In this document: positions 1 to 24,715 of the stretch, in pieces
How positions within the stretch are numbered: position 1 is the first letter of the stretch
Layout: every line of letters starts with the position of its first letter
NCBI GenBank assembly: GCA_044892525.1
Contig: CM097887.1
Coordinates: 87,088,397-87,152,396, forward strand
DNA length: 64,000 nt
Reading direction: 5' to 3'
Source: Schmidtea polychroa
Lineage: Eukaryota
The notes under the pieces: generated by a model
What the model was told of the DNA's origin: nothing
Database searches by the model: none
What the model saw: the letters and a program-made list of their open reading frames with translations, nothing else
Made by a program: the position numbers and the translations under genes

Positions 1-670
1 TCGTAAGATCGAGTTGTTGAATAGTCCAACCGATCAGAAGGAAGAAGATTGAGCTGTTGAATAGTGCCAGCCAGTCGTAAGGTCGAGTTGTGAAAAGTCC
101 AACCGATCAGAAGGAAGAAGATTGAGCTGTTGAATAGTGCCAGCCAGTCGTAAGGTCGAGTTGTGAAAAGTCCAACCGATCAGGAAGGAGGAAGATTGAG
201 CTGTTGAATAGTGCCAGCCAGTCGTAAGATCGAGTTGTTGAATAGTCCAACCGATCAGAAGGAAGAAGATCGAGCTGTTGAATAGTGCCAGCCAGTCGTA
301 AGGTCGAGTTGTGAAAAGTCCAACCGATCAGGAAGGAGGAAGATTGAGCTGTTGAATAATGCCAGCCAGTCGTAAGGTCGAGTTGTGAAAAGTCCAACCG
401 ATCAGAAGGAAGAAGATTGAGCTGTTGAATAGTGCCAGCCAGTCGTAAGGTCGAGTTGTGAAAAGTCCAACCGATCAGGAAGGAGGAAGATTGAGCTGTT
501 GAATAGTGCCAGCCAGTCGTAAGGTCGAGTTGTTGAATAGTCCAACCGATCAGAAGGAAGAAGATTGAGCTGTTGAATAGTGCCAGCCAGTCGTAAGATC
601 GAGTTGTTGAATAGTCTAACCGATCAGAAGGAAGAAGATTGAGCTGTTGAATAGTGCCAGCCAGTCGTAA
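1..670. repeat. Tandem array of ~9 copies of a 73-74 bp unit in the 5' non-coding region of the giant retroelement (runs off the window start)
   Basis: Unit TCGTAAG(A/G)TCGAGTTG(TTGAAT/TGAAA)AGTCCAACCGATCAG(G)AAGGA(A/G)GAAGATTGAGCTGTTGAATAGTGCCAGCCAG recurs at 1, 75, 148, 222, 296, 370, 443, 517, 591. Each unit contains two related GAGYTGTTGAATAGT sub-repeats. Confidence 0.95.
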
Positions 671-1973
671 AGGCCTAGAAAAGCGAGAGATAGCAGTTAA
701 GCTACAATGAGATAATATTTAAATTACTAGTGATATGGAATATTAAAGCTAGCTAGAACAAATTGAATGTAATTTTGAAAATTCGAGTTTAGAGAGGAAA
801 TAAACGAGCTCGTGGAAAAGAAAATAAGATTATAATGAAAAAGGAAAGGGAAGAAGGAAACGAATTAAAGAGATAATAGAAAATAAAGAATAGATGAAAT
901 GATGATAATGAGTAAAGAGGAAAGTAACTAACTAATTAAAGGGATCCCAGTGAAGTAGAGAAACTCTACGGAATTTTTTTGTAAACCGGGAAAATGTATT
1001 TTTACCGGTTCCAGAGTAGAACCGAGTGGGATAATAGTAAATACGAAAAGTAAAACAGCGACAACAGCGCAAAGGAATAAGAAAACGAAGGGGGGTAATA
1101 AGCAGAGACTGACAACGACCTATTTTTACTATAATTGATAACGAATAGATAATTATTACGACTTTATAGATAATTGTTACTACCCCATATAGATAATTTA
1201 AAATCGACGGAAAATACGGGCTGATGGGATATTATAACCCGCAGAAAGGATTTCACAAAAAGATAGGGGAAGCACAAACAGAAACCTAAAAGGCGTCTGT
1301 TTTTGAATGTTGTAGAAAGAATGATGAAGTCGTGTAAGCAAATGCAACACGAGATCATTTTTTCATTTTAGATATCAAGCCAATCCAGCCAACCAAGACA
1401 ATCCAGAACCTGCACAAAAGGAATTCGAAGAAATCGACAATCAACCAAGGATAAATCCATTCAGAACCCGCACCGAGAGACACAGCAACCGGAAGACTCC
1501 AGAACGGAAGAAGTATTAGCAGCCATCTGCCAAGGATTAGTAAATCTCCTCAGGATCTCAGTAGCAGATTCATACAGAATATTTATCGAAGGAAACACAA
1601 TCAGAACCGAACGCGTCCAATTCAATAGCCGCTAATTACCAAGAAGCGTAAGAAAGGAATCACGGATAAACCCAATCTTAGATCTTCTAGTAAGCCAGGA
1701 GACGTATTATTTTCAGGAGACGAATTACAACAACTCAAAAGAGGACGATCCATTAAACATCAAAGAGGAATATCACAAGGATCCAGAAGAACCAATCAAG
1801 TACCCATATTTGACCAAGAAAATCTCGGATATACCCCTAGTCGATCTCGAAGTAGAGAAAGTCTGTCCGATATCACTAATAGTTTAGCAACGTCAACCGA
1901 GGAGTTATCAGCCCAAAGTTTAGTCACATCGTTAGACAATTTAAAAGAAACAGACGAACCTAGAACACCAATC

Positions 1974-5800: not shown

Positions 5801-8800
5801 ACCGCTATTAGTGAGATGGCCGACAGGAGCCGAAATGTGGACTAACAACCAGCCATCAACGAGTTATCAACAACCAACGAAACTGAACATCGAAGAAATC
5901 ATCGACAATACTACGGAAACCGAAACGGATGAACAATTCCAGAAGCAAAGAGAACCAACGAAAGTAACACCAGAAAGTCAAACCGACAAAATAATAGACG
6001 AATGGAATGAGTGGCTAAGAAATAACGATAGCTCATTACCCAGAACGGATAACGAAAGAAATCCGAATTACGAAAATACCAGAGAAGCAGGAACGATGAT
6101 GGAAAAACGGGCAAAAGGAAGACCCAAGAAACAAGGAGAAAAGTCTGAGTTCAAAACCAAAGAACAATTAAAGCAAGAACAAGGGCAAGTTCGATTAGAA
6201 AAATTGGATAAAATAGTATGGGATCTAAAGGAAGCCCAACCAACGATCGAAAGAGGAGAAAAATGGATACGAGAACTGTTAAAAGATATGTTAATAATAA
6301 CAAACCCACAACTTAGACGTTTGTGGCAACGGAAAGTAGCCAGTACGGAAGCTAGACAATTATGGCACACCATTTCGGGGATAATCCCAAAGTTAATCAA
6401 AGAGAAAACGAAAACCACCAAAACGGATTGGGACGAAACAAAGAGAGTGATTGAGCAGCTCACGACAAATGCAAATGATGACGAGCATCACCTAGTGGTA
6501 ATCACTTATTTGATGTATAATTTGATGGGACTAGCTGCGAGGAAAATACCAAATAAACAGTTTGCAAATCATGTAGAAATGACCGTTTCAATCATAGAGA
6601 ATACTATTGAACCACACATTATTCGTGCAGGAGGATGGAAAAGACTGATACAAGCGCCACGGAAAAATGAGCAAGAAAGGTCGATGCAAGTTAGATTGAA
6701 AAAACTGTTAAATGAACTAGAATGGGAACTACCGATGAAAGATCCCGCAAGCAGAAAAGCATCAATAAATTCGTTAATGATGACTATGATGATATGGATG
6801 TTGTGCACAAGTGGAGCAACAGGTTTCACCATCTACGATTGTGATAACATGATAATGAGAGATAAATACTCATTGAGAGACATAGAAGAATGCAGACAAG
6901 CCTCACCCAACAAATTGGACATCGTGAGAACAAAAGTTACTTACCATGTATATCAAGAATCAGATTTCATCAGAACGCAAGCAAGGGAATGCGTAGTATC
7001 AAAAAAGGTACTCGCATATTACTGTGGACAATATTCGTATTCGACTCTTATACTACCCGGTCTGGATAAAGAAATCGTATCAATACAACGAGAGGATTGT
7101 AAAGAGCTATTTAGAACCGGAGCGCTAAAAATGCATAACGGAGTGACAATTCACGGACAAACTGGAATGATTAAAACCGAAAGTGTTTACGTATCCGGAA
7201 AAGTAAAATCATCAGATGGGTCATGTAACGGAGGTACGTATACGATCCGAGGCGAGGTAATATCGGGAGTTGTAGTGATCGAGTCTTACACGGTCGAATT
7301 AAAAGAATACGAAGCGCAATTTGACGCAAATAATTACCAAATGAAGACCAACCCAACGTGTAGAGCTACAGAAAACGTATGCAGGACAGGAGTATCAACT
7401 ATAATCTATGAAGCTAATACCCAAAAATGCCGACTCCAACTGTTAAAAAGTGCTTTGTTCAATGAAGTAAAAGGAGAAATATATGAGAACGAGAACGACG
7501 AGGATGGAAACGACAGAGTGAGAATGCGAAATGGAAAACCAATGCCACCATCTCCCAGAGAAAAGAGACTTTCAACGCAGAAGACACCAACAGCATTAAT
7601 CACAGACGATCCAGATCTAGGTATGAGATTTATCAAAGAGAAAGAAACCACCAAATGTGACAGTATAGTATATAAAACCAATTACGCAGGTATCTATATG
7701 TCGAGACAAATAATCGATAGAGCAGTGGGAAAGATAGCAACGGAGGACGTAAAACTATACTTATATGCAAATAATAAAATGGATTTTCTATTTCATCGCG
7801 GACAAACGACCTTGCAAAAAGTATATTACGATCTAATACAAAACGATTGTTCATTGAATAAAGAAATATTGAAAACAAAGCTAGCTATTGCGATAACGCA
7901 CCCAGATAACACGATGCCATCACTCCCATTACCAGATGGACACTTTGGTAGAATGGTAGGAGAAGTGATGTACACATACCAGTGTACCAAGACGTATGCA
8001 CGAATGCCAGAAAAATCCATACTACCCGAAAAGAGATGTGCAAATGAATTAGAAATCCGTTATAAAGGACAAAATCGATTCGTCCAACCAGTCACTAGAA
8101 TTATGAATCCAGTGGGTTTCTACCCAAATCTCTTTAACTGTTCTAATGCATACGGACCTTTATATGAAAGGCCCGATGGGAAATGGATGATGTTACCGGG
8201 AAAAACCATATCCGAGGAGCCCAAGAAATTTGGATTAATAGAACTCGCCACAGAGCTGGATTTCAAACCTATAGACGTGTCAAACGGTGGTATGTATTCC
8301 CCAGAAGATCTAGAAACAGCACGACTTAACGTACTCTTCCCAGCCAGACGAGAATCCATTTTGTCTAATATGGTAACAATAACTGGGGGCACAAACTATC
8401 AATCAGGCCCGAATTACGAGCTGCTATTATCGCCAGACCATTTTCAACAAGCTACGTCAAACATGATGAAAGCAATGTGGGGAAGATTCTTAGTTTTTGG
8501 ACAAATGATGGCCGGGATATTAGGGATCATACTCATAATTCAGATAGTCAGAGTAATACTAACACAAATGTTAGCTTGTTTCGATATATACAAGCGGGAA
8601 AAGAAAGTTAATTGGAAAATGATAGTAGGCTTCTTACCATTTTTAGCTAAGACCATGGTATTACATGGCCACTCAAAAGACATTCATCGGATAAAGCGAT
8701 TGATTAAAATATTAACAAAGATTAAAGGAACCGACGAAGAAGTAGGCAGACGATTCCGGAAAGTAATGTACGATGAAGTAACAAGACGACAATTGAGAAA

Positions 8801-11800
8801 GAATAAGCCAAAATTCTTGGACCGATTTAGAAGCCAATCATCTAACAGCGATAGTGACGACGATGATAACGGGAACGATAAATGTCTTTATCCAAACAGA
8901 AACCCAAACGAAAAACCAATGGAAACGGCACCATATTGGGAAAAGGAAAAGACAAACACCTGGATCGCCAATGGAAGCTATATACCACCGGATATCGTGG
9001 GACCACAAACAGCTTTGACCATGACACAAAATATGTATCCGCAATTACCGAGTCAACCCGGTATGCATTATATGCCAACACGACGTACCAAAAGTGTAGA
9101 TCAAGCAGATGACGTAAGAACAATAGCAGCGATGAGTTTACCTGGAGGTCCAGCAGTAACAGTTATGATTCAAATCAATGGTAAAGAAACCAATGCTATG
9201 ATAGACACCGGAGCTAATGTATCAGCGATAGCGATTAATCAAATCCCCAGTAAACACTGGAAGGATATCGAATCAACAACAATTCACATCATAGCATGTA
9301 GTAAAGAAACAGTGGACGTGGTCGGAAGATGGTGGACTACATTGAGATACCAGGACAACGAAATTGAAACGTATTTGGCAGTAATACCAAAACTTAGCGT
9401 ACCATGCATAATCGGAACGGATTTGATGCCAGAATTGTTAAAAGAAGTCGTAATTGACTTAACAACCATGTGTTTAAAAGACAAAACCGGTAGAATATGC
9501 AAAATGAATGCAGTCATCAGATGTCCAGGAAAAATAATAGTACCAGCAAAATCACAGATGATTTGTCAGATAAAAGTGGATACGGGTATGGAAGGAGAAG
9601 TTATCTTTGAACCAAGCAAGTCATTTGAAAAGCGACGAGAATTACCACTCGCAAGAGAAATAATCACAATAAACCAAGAAGGAGTGATACCGCTCAACAT
9701 CACGAATTTCGAAGAGGAAGACAAAATCATTTATGAGAACGAAAAATTGGGAAGATTGACCCCAATGATGGACATAGAATTACCGAAAGTGACCAACGAG
9801 ATGATCAAAGATGATGAATTATGGACAATAGATAGTATGTTGTTGACGAATGACGAAAAGAAAAAATTGCACCGATTGTTGGTAGAATATAAAGATATAT
9901 TCGCCATCTCAGATTTAGACTTGGGTACATGTGATGTTACCTTACATGCAATACCACTCATAGACGAAACCCCAATTGCATTGAGACCATACAAGCTAGC
10001 AGAAATGCAGAAAGAAATAGCCGAAACAGAAGTACAAAAGATGCTAGACGCAAAAGTAATCGAACCAAGTTGCTCACCCTGGCAATTCCCAGTGGTCATG
10101 GTGAAAAAGAAAGATGGCACCCAACGATTCTGTATCGATTATCGGAAGTTAAACGCAGTGACCAAGAGAGATACCTATCCATTGCCGGACATCAATGAGA
10201 TGTTATTGATGTTGCAAGGGGCAGCATATTTTACTTCTTTAGATCTAAAAAGTGGATACTGGCAGATTAAAGTCAAAGATGAGGACAAAGAGAAAACAGC
10301 TTTCACGTTGGGACGAGATCTATATCAATTCAGGAAAATGCCATTTGGACTGACTAACGCACCAGCATCATTTCAACGGTGTATGAACTTTGTCACCCAT
10401 GGAATCAAACAATGTATGGTATATATTGATGATTTACTAATCTATTCAGCGACATTTGAACAACATATGGAAGATATCCGAAACGTATTTATTAGATTAA
10501 GACAGTGGAAACTCAAACTCAAACCATCAAAATGCGATTGGGCAAAGGAAAAAGTCACGTTTTTAGGACACATAGTGTCAGCTAAAGGAAAGGAGCCAGA
10601 TCCAAGAAACATTGAGAAAATAAAAACATGTCCAGCACCGAAAACTGTCACCCAAGTTCAGGAATTTCTAGGATTATGCGGATACTATCGCAAATTTATC
10701 AAAAATTATGCAGGAATTGCAAAACCAATCCAGGAATTAGTAAAGAAGGACATTTCGTTCTTATGGGGGAAGGAACAACAAGAGGCGTTTGAAACGCTGA
10801 GAGACAAACTAATCGAAGCACCTATCCTCGTACACCCAGATTTTAAGAAGCCATTTCTATTGGCAACGGATGCAAGCGGGTACGCGGCAGGCGCGATTCT
10901 GGGACAATTAGACGATGAGGGAAAAGAGAGAGTAATCGGGTATTACAGTCGAACATTCAAAAAGCACGAAAAGAACTATTCGGTAACAGAACGAGAAGCA
11001 TTGGCTATAATACAAGCTATCAAACACTTTCGATATTTACTATGGGGACATGAGATATGCATAACCACAGACCATCAACCATTAGTGTGGTTAGGGCAAC
11101 ATAAAGAAGCGTCCAGTAGACTGATGAGATGGGCCATGCAATTGCAAGAATACTCCCCATTTATAAAATTTAAAGCGGGAAGAGCAAATGCCAACGCTGA
11201 TTGTATGTCAAGATTTATTTTCCCAGATTTGGTGGATTCAGAAATGCAACGCATATGCTTAATAGTAGCGGAAGATTTGGATTTCTGTCAATTGCGAAAG
11301 GACCAACAAGAGGACGCGGAATTAAAACAAATTATCGATTATATAAAAACCGGACAGACAGATGTATATGCGAAAGACCAAAAATTAAAAGAACATATGG
11401 ATAAACACCGACACCGATATATTATAGAGAAAGATTGGTTGCTGATAATGGATGGGGAAAAACGATTAATGTGTATACCGGAAAACCGACGAAAAGAGTT
11501 ACTAACGCAATATCACGATGGGAGATTGGGAGGACATATGTCATCGAAAAAGACGTTAGCAAGAATGAAACAGAAATATTTTTGGCCTACGTTAACGGAA
11601 GATGTAACCGAATGGGTAAAAAATTGTCTAACTTGTGCAACCAGGAAGAATACGGGATCGAAATGGAAAGCACCTTTAACGCCAATGCCAGTACCAATAG
11701 AACCAATGACAATGATATCCATGGACGTAGTTGGTCCACTACCAGAGTCAGATAAAGGAAACGTTTACATTCTGGTGATCACAGACTTTCTTACGAAATT

Positions 11801-14800
11801 TCCAGAAGCATTCGCGATGCCAGACCAAAAAGCTAAAACAATCGCCAAAATTCTGGTAGAAGAGATATGTTGCCGATATGGAACACCAAAACAGATATTA
11901 ACCGATCAGGGAACTAATTTTATGAGTGAGATAATGAGCGAAGTAACAAATTACTTCAAAATAGCAAAACTAAGAACATCTCCATACCACCCTCAAACCA
12001 ATGGGATGACGGAAAGATTTAATGGAACACTTATACAAATGTTATCAAACTACGTTGACCGTCACCAACGAGATTGGGACGAATATATAAACCTATGTCT
12101 TATGGCGTACAGAATGTCGATTCACGCATCAACGAAAATGAGCCCATTCAAATTAATGTACGGAAGAGAATGTAATATGCCAATGGACCTGGAATACCAA
12201 CCACCGATATCGCAGTATATGGAGATCGATGATTATGTTACGAAATTCAAGGAAAGAATGCAAGAAATTTGGGAAACTGCGGGATTAAATATCAAGTTCT
12301 ACCAGGAAAGTTATAAAGATTTACACGATCGAAAGAAAAACGTGAAGCAACATACGTTCCAAACAGGTGATTGGGTAATGATAGAAACCCCGGAATTAAT
12401 TCCAGGAACCACAAAAAAGTTACAACGCAACGGAAAAGGACCATATGAGATCTTATTCGTAGGCGAAACTAATGTAAGAGTGAAATTGGTAAATAACCCC
12501 TTTACCAGACCAATATACGTAAACGTGGCACGATGCAAATCAATTCCAAAAACAGCCACTAGTCAACCAGAAGGCCGTACATTAACCACACGTTCGCAAA
12601 CCTACCGAATGAACATGATGCAACAACTCGCAGAACCGATCACCGGACGATTGGGTATCCAACCATCAGAAGCGGAAAAGATTGTAAAAGAGGTAAAAAT
12701 TAAAATACCTGGATGGGCGAAAGATCGATTAGATTTCGAAATATTAGGAGGATTATTGACGATGATCGAGAACTATGCAAATAGAGAAAGGACACACCCA
12801 TTATTGCGAGTAGTCAAAAGCCAATGGCCAATATTATTTACAATAACAGATCATTACGGAGACACACCATTACACAAACTCATGAAAGTAGGTAACAACG
12901 AGCAAATACTAGAAACAATAGAAGCATTTCACGACTGCAAGCGATCAACAGAACAAACAAACAACCAAGGTTACACACCATTAATGATAGCCGCAAACAG
13001 AGGCAAAACAAAAGACATTATAACCGCATTACTCGATACCGGATCGAAAATAACTACACAAGACCACGAGCGGAAAAACGCTCTACATCATGCTATCAGA
13101 GGGAGAAGTACCGAGGCGTTCACGTCATTGATGGAACTACTATCATATGAGGACAATCGGGAAGTCGGAAACATGTATGATGGATTGCTAACAGCGATCA
13201 AAGAAAAACTGACGACAATTACCGGAATATTAATTACATGGAGAAATCCAATTCGAAACGATTATATGATCAACGTAAACGAAGCGTTCACGAGAGGAGA
13301 GAACACGCTGATGAGAGAAGCTATGAAAGGACATCATTTATTCGAAATCCCGAATCAATTACTAGAACGAGGTATAAAATTCACAAATCACAAAGACGAA
13401 CAGTTAACAAAAAAGCGAATCGACACATTCGAAAAATCACTATTCCAATTTACTAACCAAGTACGACATAAATATTGGGAAACAGTAAGTGTGTTATATA
13501 TGATGGACACGATGAATAACATCCGCGAGAATTACATGGATATTATCCAAATACTTACAGCAGAGGAACGAATCAATAATCCAAACGGAAAGAAAACGAA
13601 AATAAGGTATGAGAAATCCAGGGAATCAAAGTCAACAACGAACCAAACGGTCACAAACAACGTCATCGAAACCAAATCAATGAGTATAGATCAAGAGGCA
13701 ATAATACGCAAAGCAAAAGAAGTGTTCTTTGAGGAAATGCTAGAGCTGCCAGACGAAATAATATTGTCCAAAATAATAAAAGCCGTACACACATACGCAA
13801 GAGATCAAACCACGGGTTTAGATATCGGGAAAATCAAAACCTTCTTGCCTCGAGCATTTACGATGGTAACGAAGGATTCCCGAACACCCCTACAACAAGC
13901 AATACTAGGTGCAAAAGAGAATAGAGCAATAACGATCATGAGAATCCTTGGGGAGATGGGCGAGGAAACCAACACGAAAAATGAACAAGGTGAAACCGCC
14001 ATGATGTATGCAGCTATAACGAAAATACACCCAAAAACACTCCACATCCTACATCAATCAGGATCGAAACTAGACGAAAGGTCCAATGAAGGAAATTCCA
14101 CCTTGGACTGGGCAACCATACAGCCAAACTTAGAAATGATCAGATTTATTTGCAAAAATGCGACAGAAGAAGAAGTTGAAAATATGTGCAAAAACACATC
14201 TCAGTTTCAATGGAATACGGTACGGAAAAATCTAGAAGCAATGAAATTATTATTAACCTGGAGAGTACCACCAAATAATAAATATGCGATAAATGTAAAC
14301 GAATTCTACGAAAACGGAGAAAATGCGATGGTAAAGAATACCCTAACTAAGGGGGGGACGCCTAAAATTATTTTAATAGTATTAAATAGAGAAGACCTAA
14401 AATTCACGCAAAATCAGAACGAGCAACAACGAATTGGGAAACATCGTCGTATGCAATTGAGAGAGTTAGTTAAAGAATGGAATAGAAAGAGACATGCTGC
14501 AACGGGTAGAAAAGAGTTTGAATTCGAAGCAAAATTAGCAAGAAACAGAGTGCTAACAGCATATCGCAGATTATTGAACGATATAAATGTCGAGGACGAC
14601 ATTTTAAATGACAGCAAGGGAGATAAACACGATGACAATAACGGAAAAGACCGAAAGGAGGATAAAGAGAAAAGAGAACCGGAGGAGGGTAAACCAGAAA
14701 ACAAGGATTCGGATACGAAAAGAGAGGGAAACAGCCCGAGAACCAAGACCAAAGAGGAGGAAAAATCGAATAATGGAAAACAGAGGGTATGCCTACCTTT

Positions 14801-15827
14801 CACTAACAAAGAAATAGAGACAAATATGATATTAATGATAATTATGCTTACCATGATAGAGTTAGTAACAGCTCAGGGAGGGACGAGAACGATAAAAGAA
14901 ACCAAAGAAGCGGAGAATCAAGATAGCAAAGAGGATGAACTAAAACAAGAAAAGAGAAAGCAAGCACAAGAGCAGCAGTGGGATTTAAAGGAAGAATGGG
15001 ACTTAAAGGAAAGGTGCATACTAGGAAGATGCATGTCTAGAGCGTATCAGAAACTAGTACTGATAAATGAGGACACAGAACCAATAACAGAAGTAAGAAT
15101 ACAAGAAGCATACCGAAATCGAGACGGGAAGAGAATAACGAACGTCAAAGGAAAAGAGGTACACCTAGGAAAAGGTGGTGAAGTAGTAATAACGCAGATC
15201 CAACCTAGAAAAGAGCACAAAGTCTGTATTTCAAGATTAGGACCAGGTGAGAGATGCCATCAATATGTGACGCAGCAGCAGCCGCCGAAAGAATACACGG
15301 TTTGTATCTGGAGGAATGAATCAAAAAGAGAATGCCGACGATACCCGGGGAAAAGAGGAAGGAAAAGAAAAAACCACGACGAAAAGAACGAAGGAGGAAA
15401 GCACAAGAAAACTGGTGAGGAAGCTCAGGACAACTATGTTTCGGAGGAAGAGATGGAAAAAATACAAAAGATGGCAAAGGAGGGTATGAACGAGGAAATA
15501 GCAAGAATACGGGAAATGATGAAAGGAAATGGCAAAAGAGGAAACGAGAAAAGTACAGAAGCGATATCAACATTAACCAACAAGGAAAAACCAGAGAGTA
15601 TAAGCGTGAAGCAGATGATGTGGATCAGTGGGATAATAATAACAGGGGCATTCCTAATCATAACGGGGGGAACAATAAAAATAATTAAAGATAAACGACA
15701 TCGCGGAGAACTAGAAATGACCCGAATCAGAAACTTCCAACATCGAGTGAAACGACCAAGTGATATCAAACAAGGACAGTGGGTGGAGGCCTGGAACGTT
15801 CAGCGCCCTCCAAACTCACGTATATAG
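1974..15827 (+). CDS. 4617-aa Gag-accessory-Env-Pol-ankyrin polyprotein
   Basis: Single open frame; retrotransposon gag capsid, 3x CX2CX4HX4C, DTG protease, YIDD RT, DAS RNase H, HHCC + DDE + GPY integrase and ankyrin repeats are all recognisable. The frame is also open upstream to 1629 without an ATG. Confidence 0.95.
   Translation: [4617 protein letters not shown]
3966..5640 (+). other. Three ubiquitin-like (beta-grasp) domains inside the polyprotein (~3966-4187, ~4491-4739, ~5436-5639)
   Basis: By-eye match to the ubiquitin pattern: [28 protein letters not shown]...[43 protein letters not shown]...[10 protein letters not shown], and a weaker first copy ([25 protein letters not shown]). 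No C-terminal di-Gly. Confidence 0.6.
6264..6650 (+). other. Bcl-2-like helical domain (divergent, viral-type)
   Basis: Ends in BH2-like [15 protein letters not shown] (GGW at 6630-6638), preceded by a hydrophobic helix [13 protein letters not shown] at the BH1 position. The canonical NWGR motif is absent. Confidence 0.6.
6765..8660 (+). other. env: Envelope glycoprotein, chuvirus-glycoprotein / herpes gB-like class III fusogen type, in frame upstream of the protease
   Basis: Internal signal peptide ([18 protein letters not shown]), then FTIYDC...YSLRDIEEC...YYCGQYS...DGSCNGGTY...YANNKMDF...CSLNKEIL...GEVMYTYQC...RCANEL...FVQPVTR...C..AYGPLY..W, the Cys/motif pattern of chuvirus-like glycoproteins. 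TM segment [25 protein letters not shown] at ~8487-8582. Confidence 0.8.
9150..9450 (+). other. Retroviral aspartic protease
   Basis: [23 protein letters not shown] (DTG at 9204) ... CIIGTDLM. It is followed by the dUTPase-fold-like spacer common in gypsy pol (~9510-9760). Confidence 0.93.
9960..11215 (+). other. Reverse transcriptase and RNase H (Ty3/gypsy type)
   Basis: [51 protein letters not shown], YIDD (10422-10433), FLGHIVS. RNase H: [40 protein letters not shown]. Confidence 0.97.
11490..12540 (+). other. Integrase (HHCC, DDE core, GPY/F tail)
   Basis: YHDGRLGGH...CLTC; [37 protein letters not shown]. Confidence 0.97.
12800..14340 (+). other. Two duplicated ankyrin-repeat modules C-terminal to integrase
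   Basis: [26 protein letters not shown]; then [25 protein letters not shown]. Both modules end in the shared motif L(I/L)TWRxPxxNxYxINVNExxxxGEN (~13227 and ~14247). Confidence 0.85.
14826..15827 (+). other. C-terminal type-I membrane protein segment of the polyprotein
   Basis: Signal-like [17 protein letters not shown], Cys-containing luminal part with FN3-like [15 protein letters not shown] / [36 protein letters not shown] (~15615-15686) and a basic tail. Confidence 0.55.
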
Positions 15828-15987
15828 AAAGGAATATGACTGTATATAATTGTAAAAAGTAAGTATATCTTATGTATATAACAGTACTATATCTCTATAT
15901 AAGCGCGGTATCAATATTATACAATAACGGGAATCATAAAATAAAATTAAATTTACATAAGAGTTGAAAAGTGTATATAAATTAGGA

Positions 15988-16347
15988 ATGGATCAAGGAA
16001 ATAACGAAATGAACCACAATACAGTAACTGAAGAATTATGGAAGCAACAATGTGCCGTATTAGCACAATTAGTGTCCAATTTGCAAGAACAAGGACTGAC
16101 GATGCACAGAAACCTGATCGAGAGTATGAACAGAGGATTTAGTTATTTGAAGATAATTGAAGACCAGAGGTTAAAAATCGAACAAATGCAAAGAGAGATA
16201 GAGAGGATAACCCAATATAGCCGTCGACAGGAAATTGAAATAGACCGAATGAGGGAGGAAGCGGAACAGACAGAAATAGAAGACTGGTCGGAATGGCTAA
16301 TGAATAGAGAGGAGAGCGGGCACGAAGCCGACTCTTCCGAACCCTAA
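15988..16347 (+). CDS. Accessory ORF2, small coiled-coil protein of unknown function
   Basis: Clean ORF with element-like codon bias and heptad-rich IIEDQRLKIEQMQREIERITQY. First ATG is at 15988; the track starts at TTG 15964. Confidence 0.65.
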   Translation: MDQGNNEMNHNTVTEELWKQQCAVLAQLVSNLQEQGLTMHRNLIESMNRGFSYLKIIEDQRLKIEQMQREIERITQYSRRQEIEIDRMREEAEQTEIEDWSEWLMNREESGHEADSSEP

Positions 16348-16432
16348 ACCAAACCTAGCTTAAAATGTAAATAATTGTAAATAAAATATCGAACCTGTAT
16401 CGATAAGAACTATTTGTACATATAATTATAGA

Positions 16433-17821
16433 ATGGATAAACGACAAAGAGAAGAGTTCAGAGAGATTGTCGAGCAAGTCCGAAAATCTACAACGATCAG
16501 AATACACAAACATGTTATGTGCGGAATATGTGAAAAGTTGTTAAAGGAACCTCACCAAACGCAATGTGGATGCAGAGTATGTAAAGAATGTATCAGTGAA
16601 GCAATAAAGAATAGACCACAGAGGTGCCCGGTGTGTAAAGAGACACTAATATCGAGTTTAGAAGACACTAACGAGGATAAAGCCGCAGTGAAAGACATGT
16701 TAAACACCAACCTGGGATGCAAAAATGCCCCATGCGAATGGAAAGGAGTAATATGGAAGGTAGTACGACATATGGGAGAATGTATGTACAGAATTGGCCA
16801 GTGTGAAAGGTGCCATAAAACCATTCGAGCAAGCGAAGAAAAAGAGCATCAAAGGCAGTGTGAAGAGAGATTGGAAAGATGTGAACACTGTGGAGAAATA
16901 GATACGTGGATAAATCTCACCCTCAAACATCACAATGTCCAAGAGGAGAGAGTATGTGCAGAGTTCAGTGGGGAATGCCCAAACGGATGTAACCAAGGGG
17001 AAATAATGAAGGTGGCACAGCATCTAAGGGAATGCGCAAAGAAAAGAATGACATGTGTACTAGGTAGATGGGGTTGTCAGAAACTACTACACCGAGGTGA
17101 GTTACCACATCATTTAGTAGAAAATGCTTCAACTCACGCAGAAATGTGGTCGACTGCGCTACAAGAAAGCGAAGAGAAAGTAAAACAAATGGAGATAGAG
17201 ATAACATCGTTGAAAGTGTTAGTCAAAGAACTACTAGAAGAAAGGGAAGCGTTCGAAGAAGCCCGAGCAAACATAAAGATGCAAATAAACCGAACAGAAA
17301 TCAGTAATAATCAGGCCAAGGAGCTACATCAGAAAATACGGGAAATAAATCTAAATGAGATAACCCCAACAGCACCCTACATATGGAAAATAACGGGAGT
17401 AAAAGAAAGAATACGAAAAGCAAAAACCGGAGAAGAGACAAGAATAACAAGTCCTACATTCCATTCTTGGAAAAATGGGTACAAAATGAAAATGAAGGTA
17501 TATCCCAACGGGGACGGAACCGGATTGGATACGCACTTTTCGATTTTCTTTCTGTTATGTAAAGGAGAATACGACGAAATATTAGAATGGCCGTTCCAGG
17601 CAAAAATCGATATTACTCTGATGAACAACCAAAGTATACATGAGCAAAGCTTCAAAACAACGGGGAATCAAATAGCTTACCAGAGGCCCCTCAACGAAGA
17701 AGGATCAGCAACAGGAGCACCTACGTTCATCTCACAACAAAGAGTAGAAGATATGGCGAGAAATGATACCATATATATCAAGATGACCGTGAGGAAAGAG
17801 GAGAAGGGTAGAACGGAGTAA
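16433..17821 (+). CDS. TRAF: Full-length intronless TRAF-family protein carried by the retroelement
   Basis: RING CGICEKLLKEPHQTQCGCRVCKEC...CPVC, tandem TRAF zinc fingers, coiled coil, and MATH domain YIWKI...SPTFHSWKNGYKMKMKVYPNGDG...THFSIFF...GEYDEILEWPF. Confidence 0.95.
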   Translation: MDKRQREEFREIVEQVRKSTTIRIHKHVMCGICEKLLKEPHQTQCGCRVCKECISEAIKNRPQRCPVCKETLISSLEDTNEDKAAVKDMLNTNLGCKNAPCEWKGVIWKVVRHMGECMYRIGQCERCHKTIRASEEKEHQRQCEERLERCEHCGEIDTWINLTLKHHNVQEERVCAEFSGECPNGCNQGEIMKVAQHLRECAKKRMTCVLGRWGCQKLLHRGELPHHLVENASTHAEMWSTALQESEEKVKQMEIEITSLKVLVKELLEEREAFEEARANIKMQINRTEISNNQAKELHQKIREINLNEITPTAPYIWKITGVKERIRKAKTGEETRITSPTFHSWKNGYKMKMKVYPNGDGTGLDTHFSIFFLLCKGEYDEILEWPFQAKIDITLMNNQSIHEQSFKTTGNQIAYQRPLNEEGSATGAPTFISQQRVEDMARNDTIYIKMTVRKEEKGRTE

Positions 17822-18013
17822 CCAATCGAATAATGTTGTATATAATAATCTGTATATATCGGTGTATATAACCAATAAAATATTATATAATAATAGTATG
17901 AAAACCCTAAATACGAAAACCCAAAAATGATGCGAAAATTTCCCAAGAAACAGTAAATAATAAATAAATTCCTTTTCATAATAAAAAGATTAATCGATGT
18001 CTATGATTTAGAG

Positions 18014-19069
18014 ATGACACAAGAGAAAATAACCGAAACTGCGATAGCCCCAACCAATGTCAACAAGACACAAATTCCCCGGGAACATAATAAAAAATGG
18101 AACAAAGTAATGTTCCAACTAACTAATCTCACCCGAAATCACATCGAAGAAACTAGAGAAGATGAGAATAGTCAATACCAATGGTTAATACACAACTTAA
18201 GAGCGGAAGCAGAAGCATGCAAAAGAGCATCAAAATGGGCGTCACTAGAAAATACCCGCCAAGAAGCACACAGCCACTACTTAAAGCAGCTAGTGCAGGA
18301 AGCGAGAAAAAGACTTACCGATGAGAACACCAAGCGCGAAGCGGAAAAACAAATAGAAGACAGGAAAACGATGCACTTAGTGGCAGAAGCGAGAAAATGG
18401 AAAAGACAAAACAGAGAAATGAAAAAAGAGATGAAAGAATTGCCCATGAGACTCGGATATGAAAGCGAACAAGGTAAATGGGAGGAGAATTTAATAATAA
18501 AGGAAGAATTGAAAAGGTTGAGAAAGGTCGCCGCCCGAAGCCAAACCTGGCAAACAAAGGCTATGGAGTTTGAGCGACATTTGGCAATGAAGTGCGACAT
18601 AAGAGAGCACGAGAATGCCGCAATGGAAGAGATGATAACCCAACAAGCGGGACGGGTTGTGGAATTAGTAAATCAGGTAGAAGAGATGAAAAGAGACCTT
18701 AATGGATTACAAGGATCGCTGGAACAAAGAAACATGGTCCTAGCGGGAAAAAACAGAAAATTAGAAAACGAAAGGAAAATGTACACCGAAAATATTAAAA
18801 ACTTAGAAATAGAAATTGAAAAATGGAAGGGCGACGAGAAAATCAAGGCCCTAGACAAACAGATAGAGGCGAAAGACGAAGAGACAAGGTATCTCACCTA
18901 TCTGCTCGACGAGGAATTGAACATCACTCGAGCTCTAAGAGACGAAATTAATGAGTTGAGAGCTCAAATCCCCCAATATTACCTACCATACGACCCTATT
19001 GCGATACAGTTACATCCCGCGGTCGATAGTGATGAAGGGTATGTAGGCCAGGAGGAAACCTTCGTATAA
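18014..19069 (+). CDS. Accessory ORF4, long coiled-coil protein of unknown function
   Basis: 351-aa intact ORF, E/K/R-rich heptads over most of its length, element-like bias. Confidence 0.75.
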   Translation: MTQEKITETAIAPTNVNKTQIPREHNKKWNKVMFQLTNLTRNHIEETREDENSQYQWLIHNLRAEAEACKRASKWASLENTRQEAHSHYLKQLVQEARKRLTDENTKREAEKQIEDRKTMHLVAEARKWKRQNREMKKEMKELPMRLGYESEQGKWEENLIIKEELKRLRKVAARSQTWQTKAMEFERHLAMKCDIREHENAAMEEMITQQAGRVVELVNQVEEMKRDLNGLQGSLEQRNMVLAGKNRKLENERKMYTENIKNLEIEIEKWKGDEKIKALDKQIEAKDEETRYLTYLLDEELNITRALRDEINELRAQIPQYYLPYDPIAIQLHPAVDSDEGYVGQEETFV

Positions 19070-19240
19070 GGGTGGATGAAAAAAAATGAAAAACCAAAAA
19101 CCGGGAAGTATATCCCAAACAAAAAAAATTAAAGTATTGTAAAAGTATTCAAAGGACTGTAACCCAAACTATTAAATTTTATATCAATGTATACGTATAA
19201 GTCGCACTATAGCGCATCATTAACTGTACATATTATAGAT

Positions 19241-19939
19241 ATGAAAATCGAGGAAATGATAGAAATTATGAGCGACGTAGAAGAGGGAGAGATTGAGGCA
19301 GAAACAACAGAAACACAAACGATAAAGGCCGAGTTACGGGAAGAGAAATACGAAAACGGGAGATTAATAAACAAATACCTGGAGGACCGGAAAATGATAA
19401 AGGTGTTAAAGAAAGAGTGCGAAGCGTTGGGGGAAATAAAAAGAGAAACGGAAGAGGAAAATGAATGGCTACACGAACAAAGGAAGCGAGGGAAAAACTG
19501 GGAAAAGATAGCGGAAGAACTATGGAAAGAGAGGGCAAGCTTCAAAGCAAAGGAGGTAATCCAAGACTACTGGAAAACTGAGGCGAAGGAGCGCCAAACA
19601 GCTATAAATAAATTAAAACGACAACTAGAAGAAAACCAACGGGAAAGTAAAGAAATGAGGAAGTGGGTCCGCAAATATAGAGAAATAGAAAGAAAACATC
19701 AACAACAAAATTACCTGCAAGAAAACGAACAAGATCTCCTACAAATCGAGCTAAAAAGAAACCTTGAAAAGAAAAGGGAAGAAATTAGACGCTTGGAAAA
19801 AGAAATTAGACATCTAAAGAGAGAAGCCCGTGAAAAAGACCGACAATTGGAAATGCTGCCCGAGTTAAGACACAGGGTAATTAAAGCAGAGTCCACCTTG
19901 ATGAGAATCGGCGAAAATAATCCAAATCAGAACCATTAA
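19241..19939 (+). CDS. Accessory ORF5, coiled-coil protein of unknown function
   Basis: Intact ORF (track start 19187). The ATG at 19241 follows an acceptor-like TATTATAG. Heptad-rich. Confidence 0.7.
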   Translation: MKIEEMIEIMSDVEEGEIEAETTETQTIKAELREEKYENGRLINKYLEDRKMIKVLKKECEALGEIKRETEEENEWLHEQRKRGKNWEKIAEELWKERASFKAKEVIQDYWKTEAKERQTAINKLKRQLEENQRESKEMRKWVRKYREIERKHQQQNYLQENEQDLLQIELKRNLEKKREEIRRLEKEIRHLKREAREKDRQLEMLPELRHRVIKAESTLMRIGENNPNQNH

Positions 19940-19994
19940 ATTAAGGGTCATTAAAACCAATTGTAAATAAACATAATGAATGTATAATAGTATC

Positions 19995-20648
19995 ATGCGA
20001 GGCGAGATGATGATAACAATGATGGTATTGATGATTCTGATGGAGAGCAAACAAATAGACGCCCAACCGAAAATCGTACGAGATTACCGAAATCAAAATC
20101 AAGAACCTAAACAAGAATCCGGTCAATGCACATACCCGATGACCGTAAAAACCCATATCATCCAAACCATTCAATCAACCCGATCACACATCAACAACAT
20201 CCAAACAATGTGTAAAAAGAATCCCATTTGTAAAATGATAAACAAACAAATCCTCGAACAAATTCAACAATTCGACCAGTTGGAACAACAAATGCAACAA
20301 GAGAATTTTGGAAATCTGGTAGAAAAGCCAAAAACACCTCCCGAAATCAATGACACCCACTATCTCATATATGTGGTGATCGCAGAGACCCTCCTCCTAT
20401 GTCTACCAATATTCATGAAAATTTACGAAGTTCGAAATAGATGTAGAATCTCGACATCAATAAGAGTAACCTCGAACCAAAATCCTCAAGAAGTGCCCCT
20501 GACAAATCTTAACCCAACCCCATTCCGACCTCGAACCCCGAGTAATCAACCAATCCAGCCGAAATCTAATAGTCAGACCTATCTCAACATCAATACCCAA
20601 ACCAACCAACAGCCGCCAGCAGAAGCATCAATGGTTAACAATTCATAA
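19995..20648 (+). CDS. Accessory ORF6, putative type-I membrane protein
   Basis: Met-rich signal-like MMITMMVLMILMESKQIDAQ, short Cys-containing ectodomain, TM YLIYVVIAETLLLCLPIFM, and P/Q/N-rich tail. Confidence 0.65.
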   Translation: MRGEMMITMMVLMILMESKQIDAQPKIVRDYRNQNQEPKQESGQCTYPMTVKTHIIQTIQSTRSHINNIQTMCKKNPICKMINKQILEQIQQFDQLEQQMQQENFGNLVEKPKTPPEINDTHYLIYVVIAETLLLCLPIFMKIYEVRNRCRISTSIRVTSNQNPQEVPLTNLNPTPFRPRTPSNQPIQPKSNSQTYLNINTQTNQQPPAEASMVNNS

Positions 20649-20873
20649 ACTCTAATTCAAACATTTGTGTTATTATATGTGGAAACTTTTATTGTATGTA
20701 CCAACTATCACCTTAAGTGATACTTGCTTGGTCTTGCTTTGACCTTGATCTTACAATAAAATTTTTATCATTGTTGTATAATTTTCCGTGTTCGTGTTAT
20801 ATTTTTTTTGAATGAATGAATTAAGTTAATTATGCAATTGCGGGACGCAATTTTGATGGGTCCCCGAGTGATT

Positions 20874-21503
20874 TGTTGGGCTGAGTCGAAAATTTAATCG
20901 TTGAAAAATAAGAAAGTAGGGAAGTAGAACATTAAGAAAAATAAAAATAAAATAAATAAAATCAGAAATAAAATAGAATAAGATATAAGGAAAATAATAA
21001 TTAAGACATAAGAATTAAAACAAAAAATAAAATTAAGAAAAGATTAAAATAGAACAAGTTGACAAAGAAATAAAGAGGAATTCAAGAAATAATAAGGAAA
21101 TTAAGGAAATAAATAGAAAAACATATTAAAAATAAAGAAAATAAGGAAAAAACAACCTAAAAACAAGAAAATTATATTAAATTAATAGAAATAAGCGGTA
21201 CTCAACTCTGATTGGTCCGCACAAATAAGAATTTGATATATATACAACTACCAAAAACATTAAATTTACTGTTAACCCCGAGCATTTCATAGGTAAGAAA
21301 GAATGTTTACTGTTTTTACTGTTAACCCCGAGCATTTCATAGGATCGACACTACTAGCCAAGCAACCGTCATTCAGAAAACTCCACAACTATTCAAAACC
21401 AGTTCAGAGACCGAAATACCATTCATCACAATAATCGACATCCAACGGACCACCATTAGAACTATTTGGAACGAACAACATTGAATTTTGACTCAGCCTA
21501 ACA
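20874..21503 (+). repeat. Putative 3' LTR (630 bp) of the giant element
   Basis: Starts TGTTGGGCTGAGTCGAAAATT and ends AATTTTGACTCAGCCTAACA (~20-bp imperfect terminal inverted repeat, TG...CA). It lies ~225 bp after the last ORF and after a TTGCG-GGA-CGCAA hairpin of the kind often seen before gypsy PPTs. The partner LTR is not visible. Confidence 0.7.
21205..21300 (+). promoter_or_regulatory. Candidate LTR promoter and splice donor
   Basis: Reverse CCAAT box (ATTGG 21211-21215), TATATATA 21237-21244, then a 29-bp direct repeat (21265-21293, 21315-21343) whose first copy ends in AG|GTAAGA (donor GT at 21293). Confidence 0.5.
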
Positions 21504-23392
21504 ATAGTAAGGGGTATTTCATTTGTTTATAGATTTATTTAAGTATTTGCAAAGCTAATAACAATGTTAAATATTAACGATTAAACATTTTAGTTAACTC
21601 TCTTCATTTGATTCTCCATTTTAATAACTTTAACGTATTGATGGAATTTGTATTATTTAAGTATTTCAGAATCAATAAAATATTTTTATCCAGATGTCCG
21701 TATTTTATTTGAATTAAAGATTTTATGAATTTTCATTTAACGAGTAACGTGGAGTTGAGATACTCCATGTCATGGTATGAGGTGCCTTCGGGAGCTCAGC
21801 CGGTGGACATGGAGTATTTCAATCGCGCAGCTAGATTGGGCCGAAATGTGAAGGCTTCTTCACGGGTCCTATCGCTGAAGATGCGACTAAATTATCACAA
21901 TGGGGTATGGATAAAAGAATAACCGGTAGACAATGATTTCACAAAGATAGTCATACGAATGAAGTGATTTTCAAGGATTTGCACAGTGATTGAGGGCGTC
22001 GCATTCTTCTTTCATTCAGTCGTTTTCGTAGGTCTTACCCCTATTGGAAAAAGAGATCCAGACAACGATTTAGTGAACTTCGTCAAAAATAACAATATCT
22101 CATAGTACGCTTCATCTGGAAACATGGTTTTATCAAATTAATTGCGACAACGTCTATTTGCCGGACTCAGTAGAACTAAATTCGTATGAAATTCCATTAT
22201 CATAGACCCAATGTCATCTAACCTGTCCAGATTGTATGTCAGGTTACGAAAGTATTCTAAAAACTTTAACTAACTCGAAACTATAAAATGCGAGATTCTA
22301 CGAAAACCTCTCTAGTATTATAATCAGAAAGTTTTTATAGACTTAGTTATTTCAAAAATTATAAACAGGTAAAATATCACCAAATTTAATTAATAACATT
22401 TATTTCTACAATAAGAGCCAGGTCATCACTGTATATATCCAAATTATTGAACCTGAGAGAAAAGGACAGGTTTCATCGAGACGGCATTACATCTGAATAG
22501 GAAAATCCGAGTAGAATGACGAGAGTAGTAATATGCTCCAGTATTTGGTAGAATTATTCCCTCGACGATCACTGAAAAGATCCAATAAATTTCCAAACGA
22601 TGGTGATCATTCACACAAGTTGATAAGGGTAAAATTCCGCGATGAGAACTGGCGGTAGCATAAATCATAACTCAAATAAATCACTGTGCAGAGAAAATCA
22701 TACGACAGCAGGATCGATAAAATCACCGTGAAAATGGCATACACCAAGTGAGTGAGATAAGATAGTAGCCATACACGAATCCATGTGGTGAGAGCACAGA
22801 ATATCAGACTAGCATACATAGTAGTCGCGACACGTGACATTCACAATAGGTCGATAATGTAATCAACCAGTCGACAGCAGTATCCGTAAATTTGGATATG
22901 TTATGACCGATGGGATTTTCCATGAGGGTGTTAAAGTAATGGCTGATGTAAACTCATCACATATTTTCAGACCAATGGTAGACAACATAGATAATCACAT
23001 TCACTACCGAATTAAAAGTGCACTTCCAATAACAAATTTCGAATCAAAAATATGTTGAGAGCGATAGTAATTTGTTTTTAATAAATTAAAATAGATAACA
23101 TATAGCAAGGTTTGGTCGCATACTATAATGTCCCTCTACTAAAGCATTATTATATTATTTCACCAATATTATATTTACACCCTATCAATTATTACGTCCC
23201 TCATGCATACAGTTAGATCAATAGATAGTCAAAGTTAATAACATGCGTCAAGCCGATGGCATTTGGTTAAATAAACTGTTTTAACAACTAAGATCCGTAG
23301 TAAAACCGGATTGTAGAATAAGTTTTCCTTCTTTTCGACGGTCAAGTATCCACGAATGGACGCGGGTCGTATCTAATTTATTCTAAAATCGT

Positions 23393-24181
23393 ATGTTCTC
23401 CATTTCATTAGTATTATTTATAGCAAGCATGCTACCAACCACTAAATCGGCATTACGGCCGTGCTTCTCGTGCGCGGATAAAAATACGGTGATAAAGGAC
23501 CTACAAACTCAGATTGGACGTTACAAGAGGAAGATAGACGAGCTGGAAGGGACATGGTTTAGTCCCGCTCGGATGAAAGAGATCCAAAAGAAGCTCGATC
23601 GTAGCGAGCATTGCCGGGACGCGCTAATATCTGAGAGCCGTGCCCAAAGAAGTCTAATCAGAGAACAATCCGAGGCACTGCATAAGGTTTACGTGCAGGC
23701 GGCTACAACCCGAAAAATCGTGCAGATTCCCATCCGAGAGGCCGATGACATCTTTCCGCCTCATCACAACCTTTCCTCGAATCCATCTCCACCGTTCAAG
23801 AGACAGTGCCGAGACTGCGTCGAAACCGAATTGTCCCCCAAGCGTCCAGATGTTGTCATCACGGGTACCAGTAAACCCCCCACTGCTAGTCCATCTGTAT
23901 CAGTCACCCTTCTGCAAGTGGCATCTTCAAGCAAACCCAAGCGCAAACAACTCTCTCGTGCAGAGCGCAAGAAGAGACAGCGCGAGCGCGCTACTGCAAA
24001 GCCAAACATTCCATCAATAGAGGACTCAACCAACGGTGGCAACTCTCACGTGTCCATCGACCTAACAACGGGACCCTCAGCGCGAATCATATCAGCCGCT
24101 GGCGTAAGGTGGGAAGAGAACGCTTCCGAGTTTTTCAACCTCGACGAATTATTCGCCGACACTGAATGGGAGAAACAATAA
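23393..24181 (+). CDS. Orphan ORF-B family member (coiled coil + TWFxP motif + basic tract), copy A, apparently intact
   Basis: 262-aa ORF. ELEGTWFSPARMKEIQKKL matches NFESTWFPPAEMQKRL / NFECTWFPPAEMKKKM at 60.5 and 62.1 kb; its C-terminal half matches the 57.2-57.5 kb ORF. AATAAA occurs at the stop and at ~24305. Confidence 0.6.
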   Translation: MFSISLVLFIASMLPTTKSALRPCFSCADKNTVIKDLQTQIGRYKRKIDELEGTWFSPARMKEIQKKLDRSEHCRDALISESRAQRSLIREQSEALHKVYVQAATTRKIVQIPIREADDIFPPHHNLSSNPSPPFKRQCRDCVETELSPKRPDVVITGTSKPPTASPSVSVTLLQVASSSKPKRKQLSRAERKKRQRERATAKPNIPSIEDSTNGGNSHVSIDLTTGPSARIISAAGVRWEENASEFFNLDELFADTEWEKQ

Positions 24182-24439
24182 AACCCCAGTGGCGGTCAGG
24201 ATGAGGAACAAGGATCCGATCTATGTTGATTATGATGTTTTCTCTTCTTTCGACAAACATTAGTAAAGTGTACAGCTGAATCCTTGTGTCATAACGTTGA
24301 AATTAATAAATCTTGTTGTCTTACACGTTTTCGTTCATGAATAATTAGACTTTAATTAAGTGGGTTGAGTAGAGAACCCGCAAGATCTAGTGAGAATTTC
24401 CCAATTTGCATTCAGCGAATCCTGATAGGTGGTTGTGTA

Positions 24440-24715
24440 AGGAAATGGACGTAAGCCCTTCTATCGGCAGTCGTGAATGGGAAGTCGAGGCCTCAGCAAG
24501 GAGTAGTTTTAAGGCAGAAGCTCACCTGCTTGCTGGCGTCTCGCCTGCATAGTGCAGTACCAACGTGAAGTGATTCACGGGCACTATGTTGGAAGAAAGT
24601 TATGTGGGGTTTCACTCCAGGTTGACAAATCGGTGGCACCTTTTATTCGAGATGGACAATCAACCCTTAGACCCGCCAACATGGTAGAATGGTCAGCCGA
24701 GGTGTGACCCCAACA
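24440..24715 (+). other. Conserved structured non-coding block, copy A
   Basis: Shares GGAC..GCCCTTCTATCGGCAGTC, GCAG..CTCACCTGC and CAGTACCAACGT with the other copies. Closes with stem GGGGTTTCAC/GTGTGACCCC followed by AACA. Confidence 0.55.

Follow-up and report, generated by a model that had tools for sequence, protein, structure and literature searches.

Results

A giant LTR retrotransposon carries a complete TRAF gene downstream of pol

The window referred to throughout is the whole stretch of DNA that was analysed, 64,000 nucleotides of Schmidtea polychroa contig CM097887.1 (GCA_044892525.1, positions 87,088,397 to 87,152,396 of the forward strand). An LTR retrotransposon of 29,997 bp runs into it from the left. 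Its 5′ LTR starts 5281 bases before the window (in L013), the LTRs are 3842 bp each and 100% identical to each other, and the flanks carry a 4-bp target duplication, GTAA. The element is a young insertion. After the 5′ LTR (L013:8561-8590) comes TGATTTT, followed by an 18-nt stretch that we take to resemble a tRNA-Pro primer site; no clear polypurine tract was seen ahead of the 3′ LTR. Features of the element within the window are collected in Table 1.

Table 1. Element features in the window, in order of position.
Feature	Position	Strand	Basis or remark
Array of 74-bp tandem repeats in the 5′ leader, 3′ of the RING ORF and 5′ of gag	37..681	+	Repeat analysis
Polyprotein, 4617 aa	1974..15827	+	Pfam: Gag with zinc knuckles, Monjiviricetes-type fusion glycoprotein, protease, RT, RNase H, integrase, ankyrin repeats
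Accessory ORF, 119 aa, directly 5′ of TRAF	15988..16347	+	Sister-family homologue about 32%; dN/dS 0.15
Candidate 3′ splice acceptor TATAG, one base 5′ of the TRAF start codon	16427..16431	+	Conservation; function predicted
Stand-alone full-length TRAF ORF, 462 aa	16433..17821	+	ORF call, Pfam, PDB sequence matches, AlphaFold model; dN/dS 0.12
RING, aa 30-68, eight Cys ligands	16520..16636	+	Pfam and alignment
Five zinc fingers, aa 96-235	16718..17137	+	Ligands placed by alignment and inspection
Coiled coil (TRAF-N), aa 232-307	17126..17353	+	AlphaFold model
MATH (TRAF-C), aa 316-453, altered peptide-binding groove	17378..17791	+	Pfam, PDB sequence matches, alignment, Foldseek
Accessory ORF, coiled-coil-like, 351 aa	18014..19069	+	Sister-family homologue 33% over 246 aa; dN/dS 0.09
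Accessory ORF, coiled-coil-like, probable start 19241	19187..19939	+	ORF inspection
Accessory ORF, hydrophobic N-terminus and one membrane-spanning stretch, probable start 19995	19980..20648	+	Inspection
3′ LTR, 3842 bp, TG...CA; contains a 262-aa ORF at 23393-24181	20874..24715	+	Identical to 5′ LTR
TATA box and candidate 5′ splice donor AG/GTAAG in the LTR (intron start would be 21293)	21236..21298	+	Conservation; function predicted

The polyprotein contains, in frame and in the interval from gag to protease, a mononegavirus-type Env (PF24664, E 6e-70, best stretch aa 1868-2207). Before it, at the expected place, lie weak Bcl-2-like (E 0.021) and ubiquitin-like (E 0.006) stretches, both below the Pfam cut-offs. 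Pfam gave no MATH match in the polyprotein of the window element, and no BIR domain was found among the window ORFs scanned. By its layout (near 30 kb, long LTRs, a single polyprotein of the 4,600-5,100-aa class) and its agreement with published descriptions, we classify the element as a Burro-type giant Gypsy. A further ORF of 161 aa lies in the leader upstream of gag (L013:8903-9388), from about 1100 to about 610 bases ahead of the window. It encodes a RING of cIAP-like type (E 3e-11), and no BIR was matched in it. This ORF is multi-copy, the best 40 of 196 candidates being 99-100% identical. The 262-aa ORF in the LTR is without a Pfam match, and an Atlas search with the small membrane protein near the 3′ LTR returned only matches under 0.9.

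Some further observations concern the surroundings. The tail of the polyprotein (window 14826-15827, dN/dS 0.13) looks like a second membrane protein: it has an internal stretch resembling a signal sequence, a region bearing Cys residues and a transmembrane stretch. A 160-aa ORF on the minus strand at 62628-63110 has the motif RLRSRWIWYKI in common with an ORF in the LTR region of a sister element family and may belong to another Burro LTR. Upstream of the element, L014:559-6663 on the minus strand encodes a 2034-aa polyprotein of BEL/Pao type, in which a ubiquitin domain lies close to the N-terminus.

The TRAF is the second of five accessory ORFs downstream of pol, lies between the polyprotein and the 3′ LTR, and is without intron or interruption. 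This bears out the earlier note, made from the sequence alone, which had described an intronless RING-zinc finger-coiled coil-MATH protein at this place within an element; the fingers number five, and the element's borders and identical LTRs are now located. The domain order is that of TRAF2/3/5. Pfam matches cover the RING (aa 29-68, E 9e-5 to 1e-4) and MATH (aa 316-453, E 3e-27). PDB sequence matches are to the TRAF domains of TRAF3/2/1 for the C-terminal part (E about 1e-27) and to TRAF6/5/2 for the RING-zinc-finger part (E 9e-15 to 9e-10). A word-index protein search with the TRAF returned 1 protein out of 3811 candidates. The AlphaFold model, built from a 27-row alignment (mean pLDDT 89.5, pTM 0.42), predicts one helix at 232-307 and a MATH sandwich, and Foldseek places TRAF domains as its best folds, with TRAF3, TRAF1 and TRAF2 at E about 1e-17. 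The RING ligands are C30, C33, C45, C47, C50, C53, C65 and C68, the fourth being Cys for His in the motif CGCRVC, and the 28 zinc-ligand positions of RING and fingers are conserved in 39-40 of 40 rows.

For the peptide-binding groove we assumed that TRAF2 positions 453 and 467 also count as groove residues. The window TRAF has K355, Y357 and Q413-I414-A415 at TRAF2 R393, Y395 and S453-S455. In the alignment, element TRAFs retain Y395, have Lys for R393 and carry QIA or LVC in place of the serines, so the canonical receptor-peptide groove is not matched. Such deviations also occur in several host flatworm TRAFs (e.g. DQC, MIC) and are therefore not element-specific. Published TRAF2 groove residues are 393, 395, 454 and 455 in the part of PMC12457700 available to us.

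The A-rich codon usage noticed earlier is borne out by counts: A occupies 0.52 of fourfold sites in the TRAF, as in the polyprotein (0.52), vs 0.29-0.33 in three host exons of the window, and codon usage of the TRAF correlates at 0.81 with the polyprotein and at 0.34 with the host exons. These control exons, at 45304-55189 on the minus strand, encode DDT, PHD and WSD domains. They presumably belong to a BPTF/NURF301-like gene.

The TRAF occupies a fixed slot in three element lineages

Lineage-specific 20-mers place about 590 element-borne TRAF copies in three element lineages (172 + 136 + 283 matches), the total of 591 including broken copies and being a lower bound. Control 20-mers gave 0-1 matches, and each lineage-specific 20-mer matched its own group only among 83 fetched loci. 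When the TRAF ORF was used in a DNA search, the best 40 of 363 candidates were all 99-100% identical over the full ORF. A MATH search reached further: the best 150 of 1509 candidates lie at 83-100%, and 132 of these have open frames of at least 470 aa, 16 are shorter and 2 have a stop. From the 150 we fetched 40 copies, picked as intact and spread over 83-98% identity; the same two ORFs flank the TRAF in all 40, with RT or integrase upstream in 38. A gene unique to this locus, which the earlier note had named as a case that would speak against it, is not what was found; the TRAF is multi-copy element cargo.

The slot is also kept beyond this subfamily. In a second subfamily (12 fetched), the TRAF is 67-69% identical to that of the window and RT, where present, 96-99%; the upstream ORF is found in 12/12 and the downstream ORF in 11/12. 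In a sister family (RT 86-89%, integrase 79-81%), a 474-aa TRAF of 29-30% identity sits in the same slot. This family additionally has MATH in its polyprotein (E 1e-29) and a BIR-RING IAP ORF directly 3′ of the TRAF (L111:5419-8706, L115, L120), and it thus carries two TRAF-C domains, one in the polyprotein and one in the full TRAF. Judged by gene order and identity, this shows that the TRAF was present in its slot before the element families split. Since the sister family has the same ORF slot at 30% identity, residence in the element appears long, as had been supposed from codon usage. Copies L045-L084 are mosaic, their identity to the window shifting between ORFs (e.g. 74% in the tail and 99% in integrase), a pattern that points to recombination between subfamilies.

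All four TRAF domains are under purifying selection

Across element copies the TRAF has a dN/dS of 0.12 (bootstrap 0.10-0.15; piN 0.046, piS 0.385), calculated over 40 of 41 naturally intact rows, and the four domains give 0.10, 0.14, 0.13 and 0.11. Values are similar in the second subfamily (0.11; 8/12 rows) and the sister family (0.15; 9/11 rows), and the synonymous diversity behind the 0.11-0.15 range is 0.17-0.39. Among comparison ORFs, integrase gave 0.02 (31/41 rows) and the two TRAF neighbours 0.15 and 0.09. Variants common to several copies are more constrained than private ones (0.16 vs 0.33). Between the subfamilies synonymous sites are saturated (pS 0.76) at a dN of 0.18, and the TRAF frame is open despite 70% amino-acid divergence. 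Pairs behind the dN/dS values are non-independent and copies were picked as intact, yet choosing open frames cannot yield such an excess of silent change. Together this shows that the TRAF is held by purifying selection in all four domains, and the neutral decay across copies that the earlier note had allowed for is not seen. The MATH domain, where copies differ more, was considered as a target of positive selection; at domain level this is ruled out by a dN/dS of 0.11 (0.07-0.15), the excess being synonymous.

Candidate splice signals precede the accessory ORFs

A YAG lies 1-2 nt 5′ of the TRAF start in 52/52 copies of both subfamilies and in 10/11 of the sister family, a conservation that stands out because synonymous sites between the two subfamilies are saturated. 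In the window, a TAG falls no more than 5 nt from a start in each of the five downstream ORFs (in two of them at the second ATG), vs 9.8% of 488 element ATGs, and in one copy of the sister family AG occurs at that place in 6/6 ORFs. The leader RING ORF has an AG acceptor before its start; gag has none. The spacers are AT-rich, with AATAAA or ATTAAA. A candidate partner lies in the LTR, where the donor AG/GTAAG or AG/GTAAA, about 55 nt 3′ of a TATA box, is found in the window and in 16/20 other stretches with diverged flanks; of the remaining four, one is without the segment, one has no LTR in reach and in two the donor was not found.

We propose that the TRAF would be made from a spliced subgenomic mRNA, as in complex retroviruses, with a short LTR leader joined to the AG acceptor just before each accessory ORF; on the conserved signals, such a scheme is probable. 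Spliced-leader trans-splicing was considered as the partner of the acceptors, and the conserved LTR donor favours cis-splicing. A 50-nt segment ending in AG follows the donor, and the donor may instead serve a small local intron. In the LTRs (window 21265-21345; L133-L152), the 25-30 nt before the donor recur about 50 nt later in copy-specific sequence, and L133 is without the segment between these repeats, as if it had been spliced or deleted. No GT..AG joint was seen among 15 of 26 joints from contigs aligned to 4800-24715; the contigs come from four runs (three guessed to be RNA, one unlabelled) and are blind to strand and starts, so this weighs neither for nor against splicing. Burro1 is reported to be silenced by PIWI (PMC8532177, available text). 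The predicted splice signals give an ORF-specific handle, by junction PCR or junction-level counts.

Flatworm ancestry of the element TRAF and the host TRAF expansion

The Cys-for-His RING, which had been picked out as unusual, is present (Cys47) but is not special to the element. All nine host TRAFs with a matched RING have CGC (12 rows, 3 partial), and among 12 named non-flatworm TRAFs 10 have CGH, 1 CGC and 1 CGD. An element novelty is thereby ruled out; on this comparison, the CGC RING is a mark of flatworm ancestry, and the element TRAF is of flatworm type.

Identity of the element TRAF to any host TRAF is about 30%. A quick tree of full-length sequences unites the element TRAFs with five unnamed database proteins (SH-aLRT 97); the program flagged composition bias, and a shared bias may have helped this grouping. 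In a MATH-only tree (58 rows; 7 dropped by choice, 4 without MATH) the element clade has support of 91/77 and the tandem host genes form a separate clade of 100/98. The phylogeny with host TRAFs proposed in the earlier note therefore gives each group its own clade, but AU tests do not reject the two as sisters (p 0.21 and 0.11). The trees single out no host donor gene. Host TRAFs without introns fall together with named genes of Dugesia and Dendrocoelum.

We fetched 20 host-type loci from the best 150 of 1551 MATH-profile candidates, many of the best matches clustering on contig C2. All 20 have an AT skew of -0.07 to +0.05, vs about 0.37 for the element, and none has the element ORF layout. 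Some are full TRAFs without introns, so that a lack of introns is ruled out as a mark of retro-origin; in others the RING and MATH are encoded in different frames, and hence in different exons. The window family has also inserted in or beside a host TRAF gene: one of its LTRs (99% identical in the LTR ORF) is found at L095:6174-6959, about 3.7 kb 5′ of a MATH exon and in the same orientation.

The planarian expansion reported in the accessible text of PMC6109357 comprises 99 transcripts and 121 MATH domains, and the earlier note had suggested that retroelement carriage accounts for part of it. This stands for copy number and fails for distinct genes: carriage explains many genomic copies, only about four lineages, and adds few distinct genes. 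A stronger form, in which carriage is the main source of the expansion and host TRAFs are domesticated element copies, could draw on the roughly 590 element-borne copies, on the many intronless host TRAFs and on AU tests that leave a tandem-host plus element clade standing. We consider it very improbable. Composition is near-zero in AT skew and the element layout absent at 20/20 host-type loci, the tandem genes have separate RING and MATH exons and a well-supported clade outside that of the element, intronless host genes group with those named in Dugesia and Dendrocoelum, and the element copies amount to three stand-alone TRAF lineages plus one polyprotein MATH. The host expansion consists mostly of intron-bearing tandem genes and of intronless genes outside elements, and the published figure is more likely to come from host arrays, together with some element transcripts. 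For annotation, this means that hundreds of TRAF/MATH matches in such genomes are element copies, to be separated from host tandem arrays when an expansion is counted.

Discussion

What the TRAF may do for the element

In the portions of the literature available to us, TRAF2/3 link receptors to cIAP-dependent ubiquitin signalling (PMC3697994), planarian TRAFs respond to microbial patterns (PMC7958881) and the IAP of Burro1 is reported to shield stem cells from caspase-mediated death (Lee et al. 2026, Dev Cell, as cited in PMC13465017). By analogy with this IAP and from the co-cargo, it is plausible that the element modulates host immune or death signalling, as the earlier note had proposed. 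We lean towards a joint reading in which the TRAF serves as an adaptor of ubiquitin signalling with changed targets and, together with IAP- and Bcl-2-like cargo, dampens signals for death or defence, and in which the tandem TRAF expansion of the host did not arise from it. The protein would act in the manner of TRAF2/3: coiled coil and MATH would form a trimer, and the RING and zinc fingers a stalk serving ubiquitin signalling. The altered groove would direct the protein to partners other than canonical receptor motifs. With an IAP-type E3 of the element and the Bcl-2-like domain, it would damp death or defence signalling in the cell expressing the element; the E3 would be supplied by the BIR-RING ORF next to the TRAF in the sister family and by the RING-only ORF upstream of gag in the window family. 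Damping is favoured because the co-cargo is anti-death in kind and because of the stem-cell protection reported for the Burro1 IAP. Against this reading, the window element has no BIR beside its TRAF, so the TRAF-IAP pairing is not universal, the Bcl-2 and ubiquitin matches fall under the Pfam cut-offs, and the best-studied viral TRAF promotes apoptosis in the account available from PMC3352826.

That last point speaks for a reading in which the TRAF activates JNK or caspase signalling, for instance for LTR transcription or particle release. ISKNV ORF111L binds TRADD and induces caspase-8 apoptosis (PMC3352826, available text), iridovirus TRAFs are among the nearest viral folds and all RING ligands are conserved in the element protein. 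A germline-resident element would presumably gain little by killing its cell, though, and the sister family pairs its TRAF with an IAP; we regard activation as quite improbable. The TRAF might instead serve the element's own cycle, as a ubiquitin-ligase adaptor acting on element proteins in assembly or membrane trafficking, or as a remover of a host restriction factor, leaving death and immune signalling unchanged. Selection on all domains is compatible with this, as with any other function; the groove does not follow the receptor-binding pattern, and a fusion glycoprotein and other membrane proteins are among the element's products. Yet the co-cargo, whether IAP RING, BIR-RING or Bcl-2-like, consistently indicates the death pathway, and candidate TRAF-binding motifs in the tail of the small membrane protein vary across copies; we think an own-cycle role rather unlikely. 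The same protein was considered as a TRAF-recruiting receptor mimic and set aside, its candidate tail motifs not being conserved over 20 fetched stretches.

We give almost no credence to the TRAF being neutral baggage or a host gene that flanks pol by chance. The 16 shortened frames and 2 stops among the best 150 copies are what such a gene might leave behind, but the TRAF is enclosed by identical LTRs, dN/dS is 0.11-0.15 at synonymous diversity of 0.17-0.39, shared variants are held back relative to private ones (0.16 vs 0.33), and the frame has stayed open across 70% amino-acid divergence. A retargeted, damping adaptor remains our preferred reading. We also speculate, while thinking it unlikely, that it could be extended: Burro would encode several genes that control cell death as one module (TRAF, IAP or IAP-type RING, Bcl-2-like) and are expressed through alternatively spliced subgenomic mRNAs, the TRAF would recruit the IAP as TRAF2 does cIAP, and the roughly 590 copies would contribute a part of the TRAF signalling of stem or wounded cells on which the host now depends. 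A complete, selected TRAF beside a Burro1-type IAP readily suggests itself as the second effector; the cargo would then amount to a pathway module, not a single gene.

Comparison with known systems

Burro/GYPSM1 are giant Gypsy-like LTR retrotransposons of planarians (Jurka 2007 and Grohme 2018, per Arkhipova and Yushenova 2019, PMC6431247). In its available text, that review lists MATH_TRAF_C among Burro motifs, placing it in the polyprotein or an upstream ORF and, for Dugesia tigrina, in an accessory ORF. Burro TRAF-C domains, those in accessory ORFs included, have therefore been published before, as have viral TRAFs. Our literature search found no account of a complete downstream TRAF, of its selection, of its place beside an IAP or of the splice signals, though figures or supplements of Grohme 2018 and Lee 2026 may show the ORF. 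The window element resembles Burro/GYPSM1, as far as these are described in the sources at hand, in its length of about 30 kb and its huge polyprotein with Gag, PR-RT-RH-IN, ankyrin repeats and, between gag and pol, an Env of mononegavirus type; the ubiquitin-like and Bcl-2-like stretches described for Burro have counterparts at the expected place that fall below the Pfam cut-offs. It differs from the described Burro in that a complete RING-ZnF-CC-MATH gene sits downstream of pol, and from Burro1/GYPSM1 in that its polyprotein has no MATH match and no BIR ORF follows the TRAF. The sister family has both, features that are given for Burro1 in the accessible descriptions, to which it is likened by description.

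The closest functional parallel is B-IAP of Burro1 (Lee et al. 2026, in what is available of it), likewise a host-derived death-pathway regulator carried as Burro cargo, and in the sister family the BIR-RING ORF comes directly after the TRAF. The published function concerns the IAP, however, and the window family has only the RING-type IAP-like leader ORF. With cellular TRAF2/3/5 and planarian host TRAFs the element protein has in common the domain order, all zinc ligands, a long coiled coil and the MATH fold, and with host flatworm TRAFs the CGC RING; it departs from them in its low identity to any host TRAF, its element codon usage and its replaced groove serines. Like the TRAFs of fish iridoviruses, such as ISKNV ORF111L, it is a captured TRAF in a genetic parasite; unlike it, those proteins come from a DNA virus, are shorter (206-296 aa) and are reported, in the text available from PMC3352826, to be pro-apoptotic.
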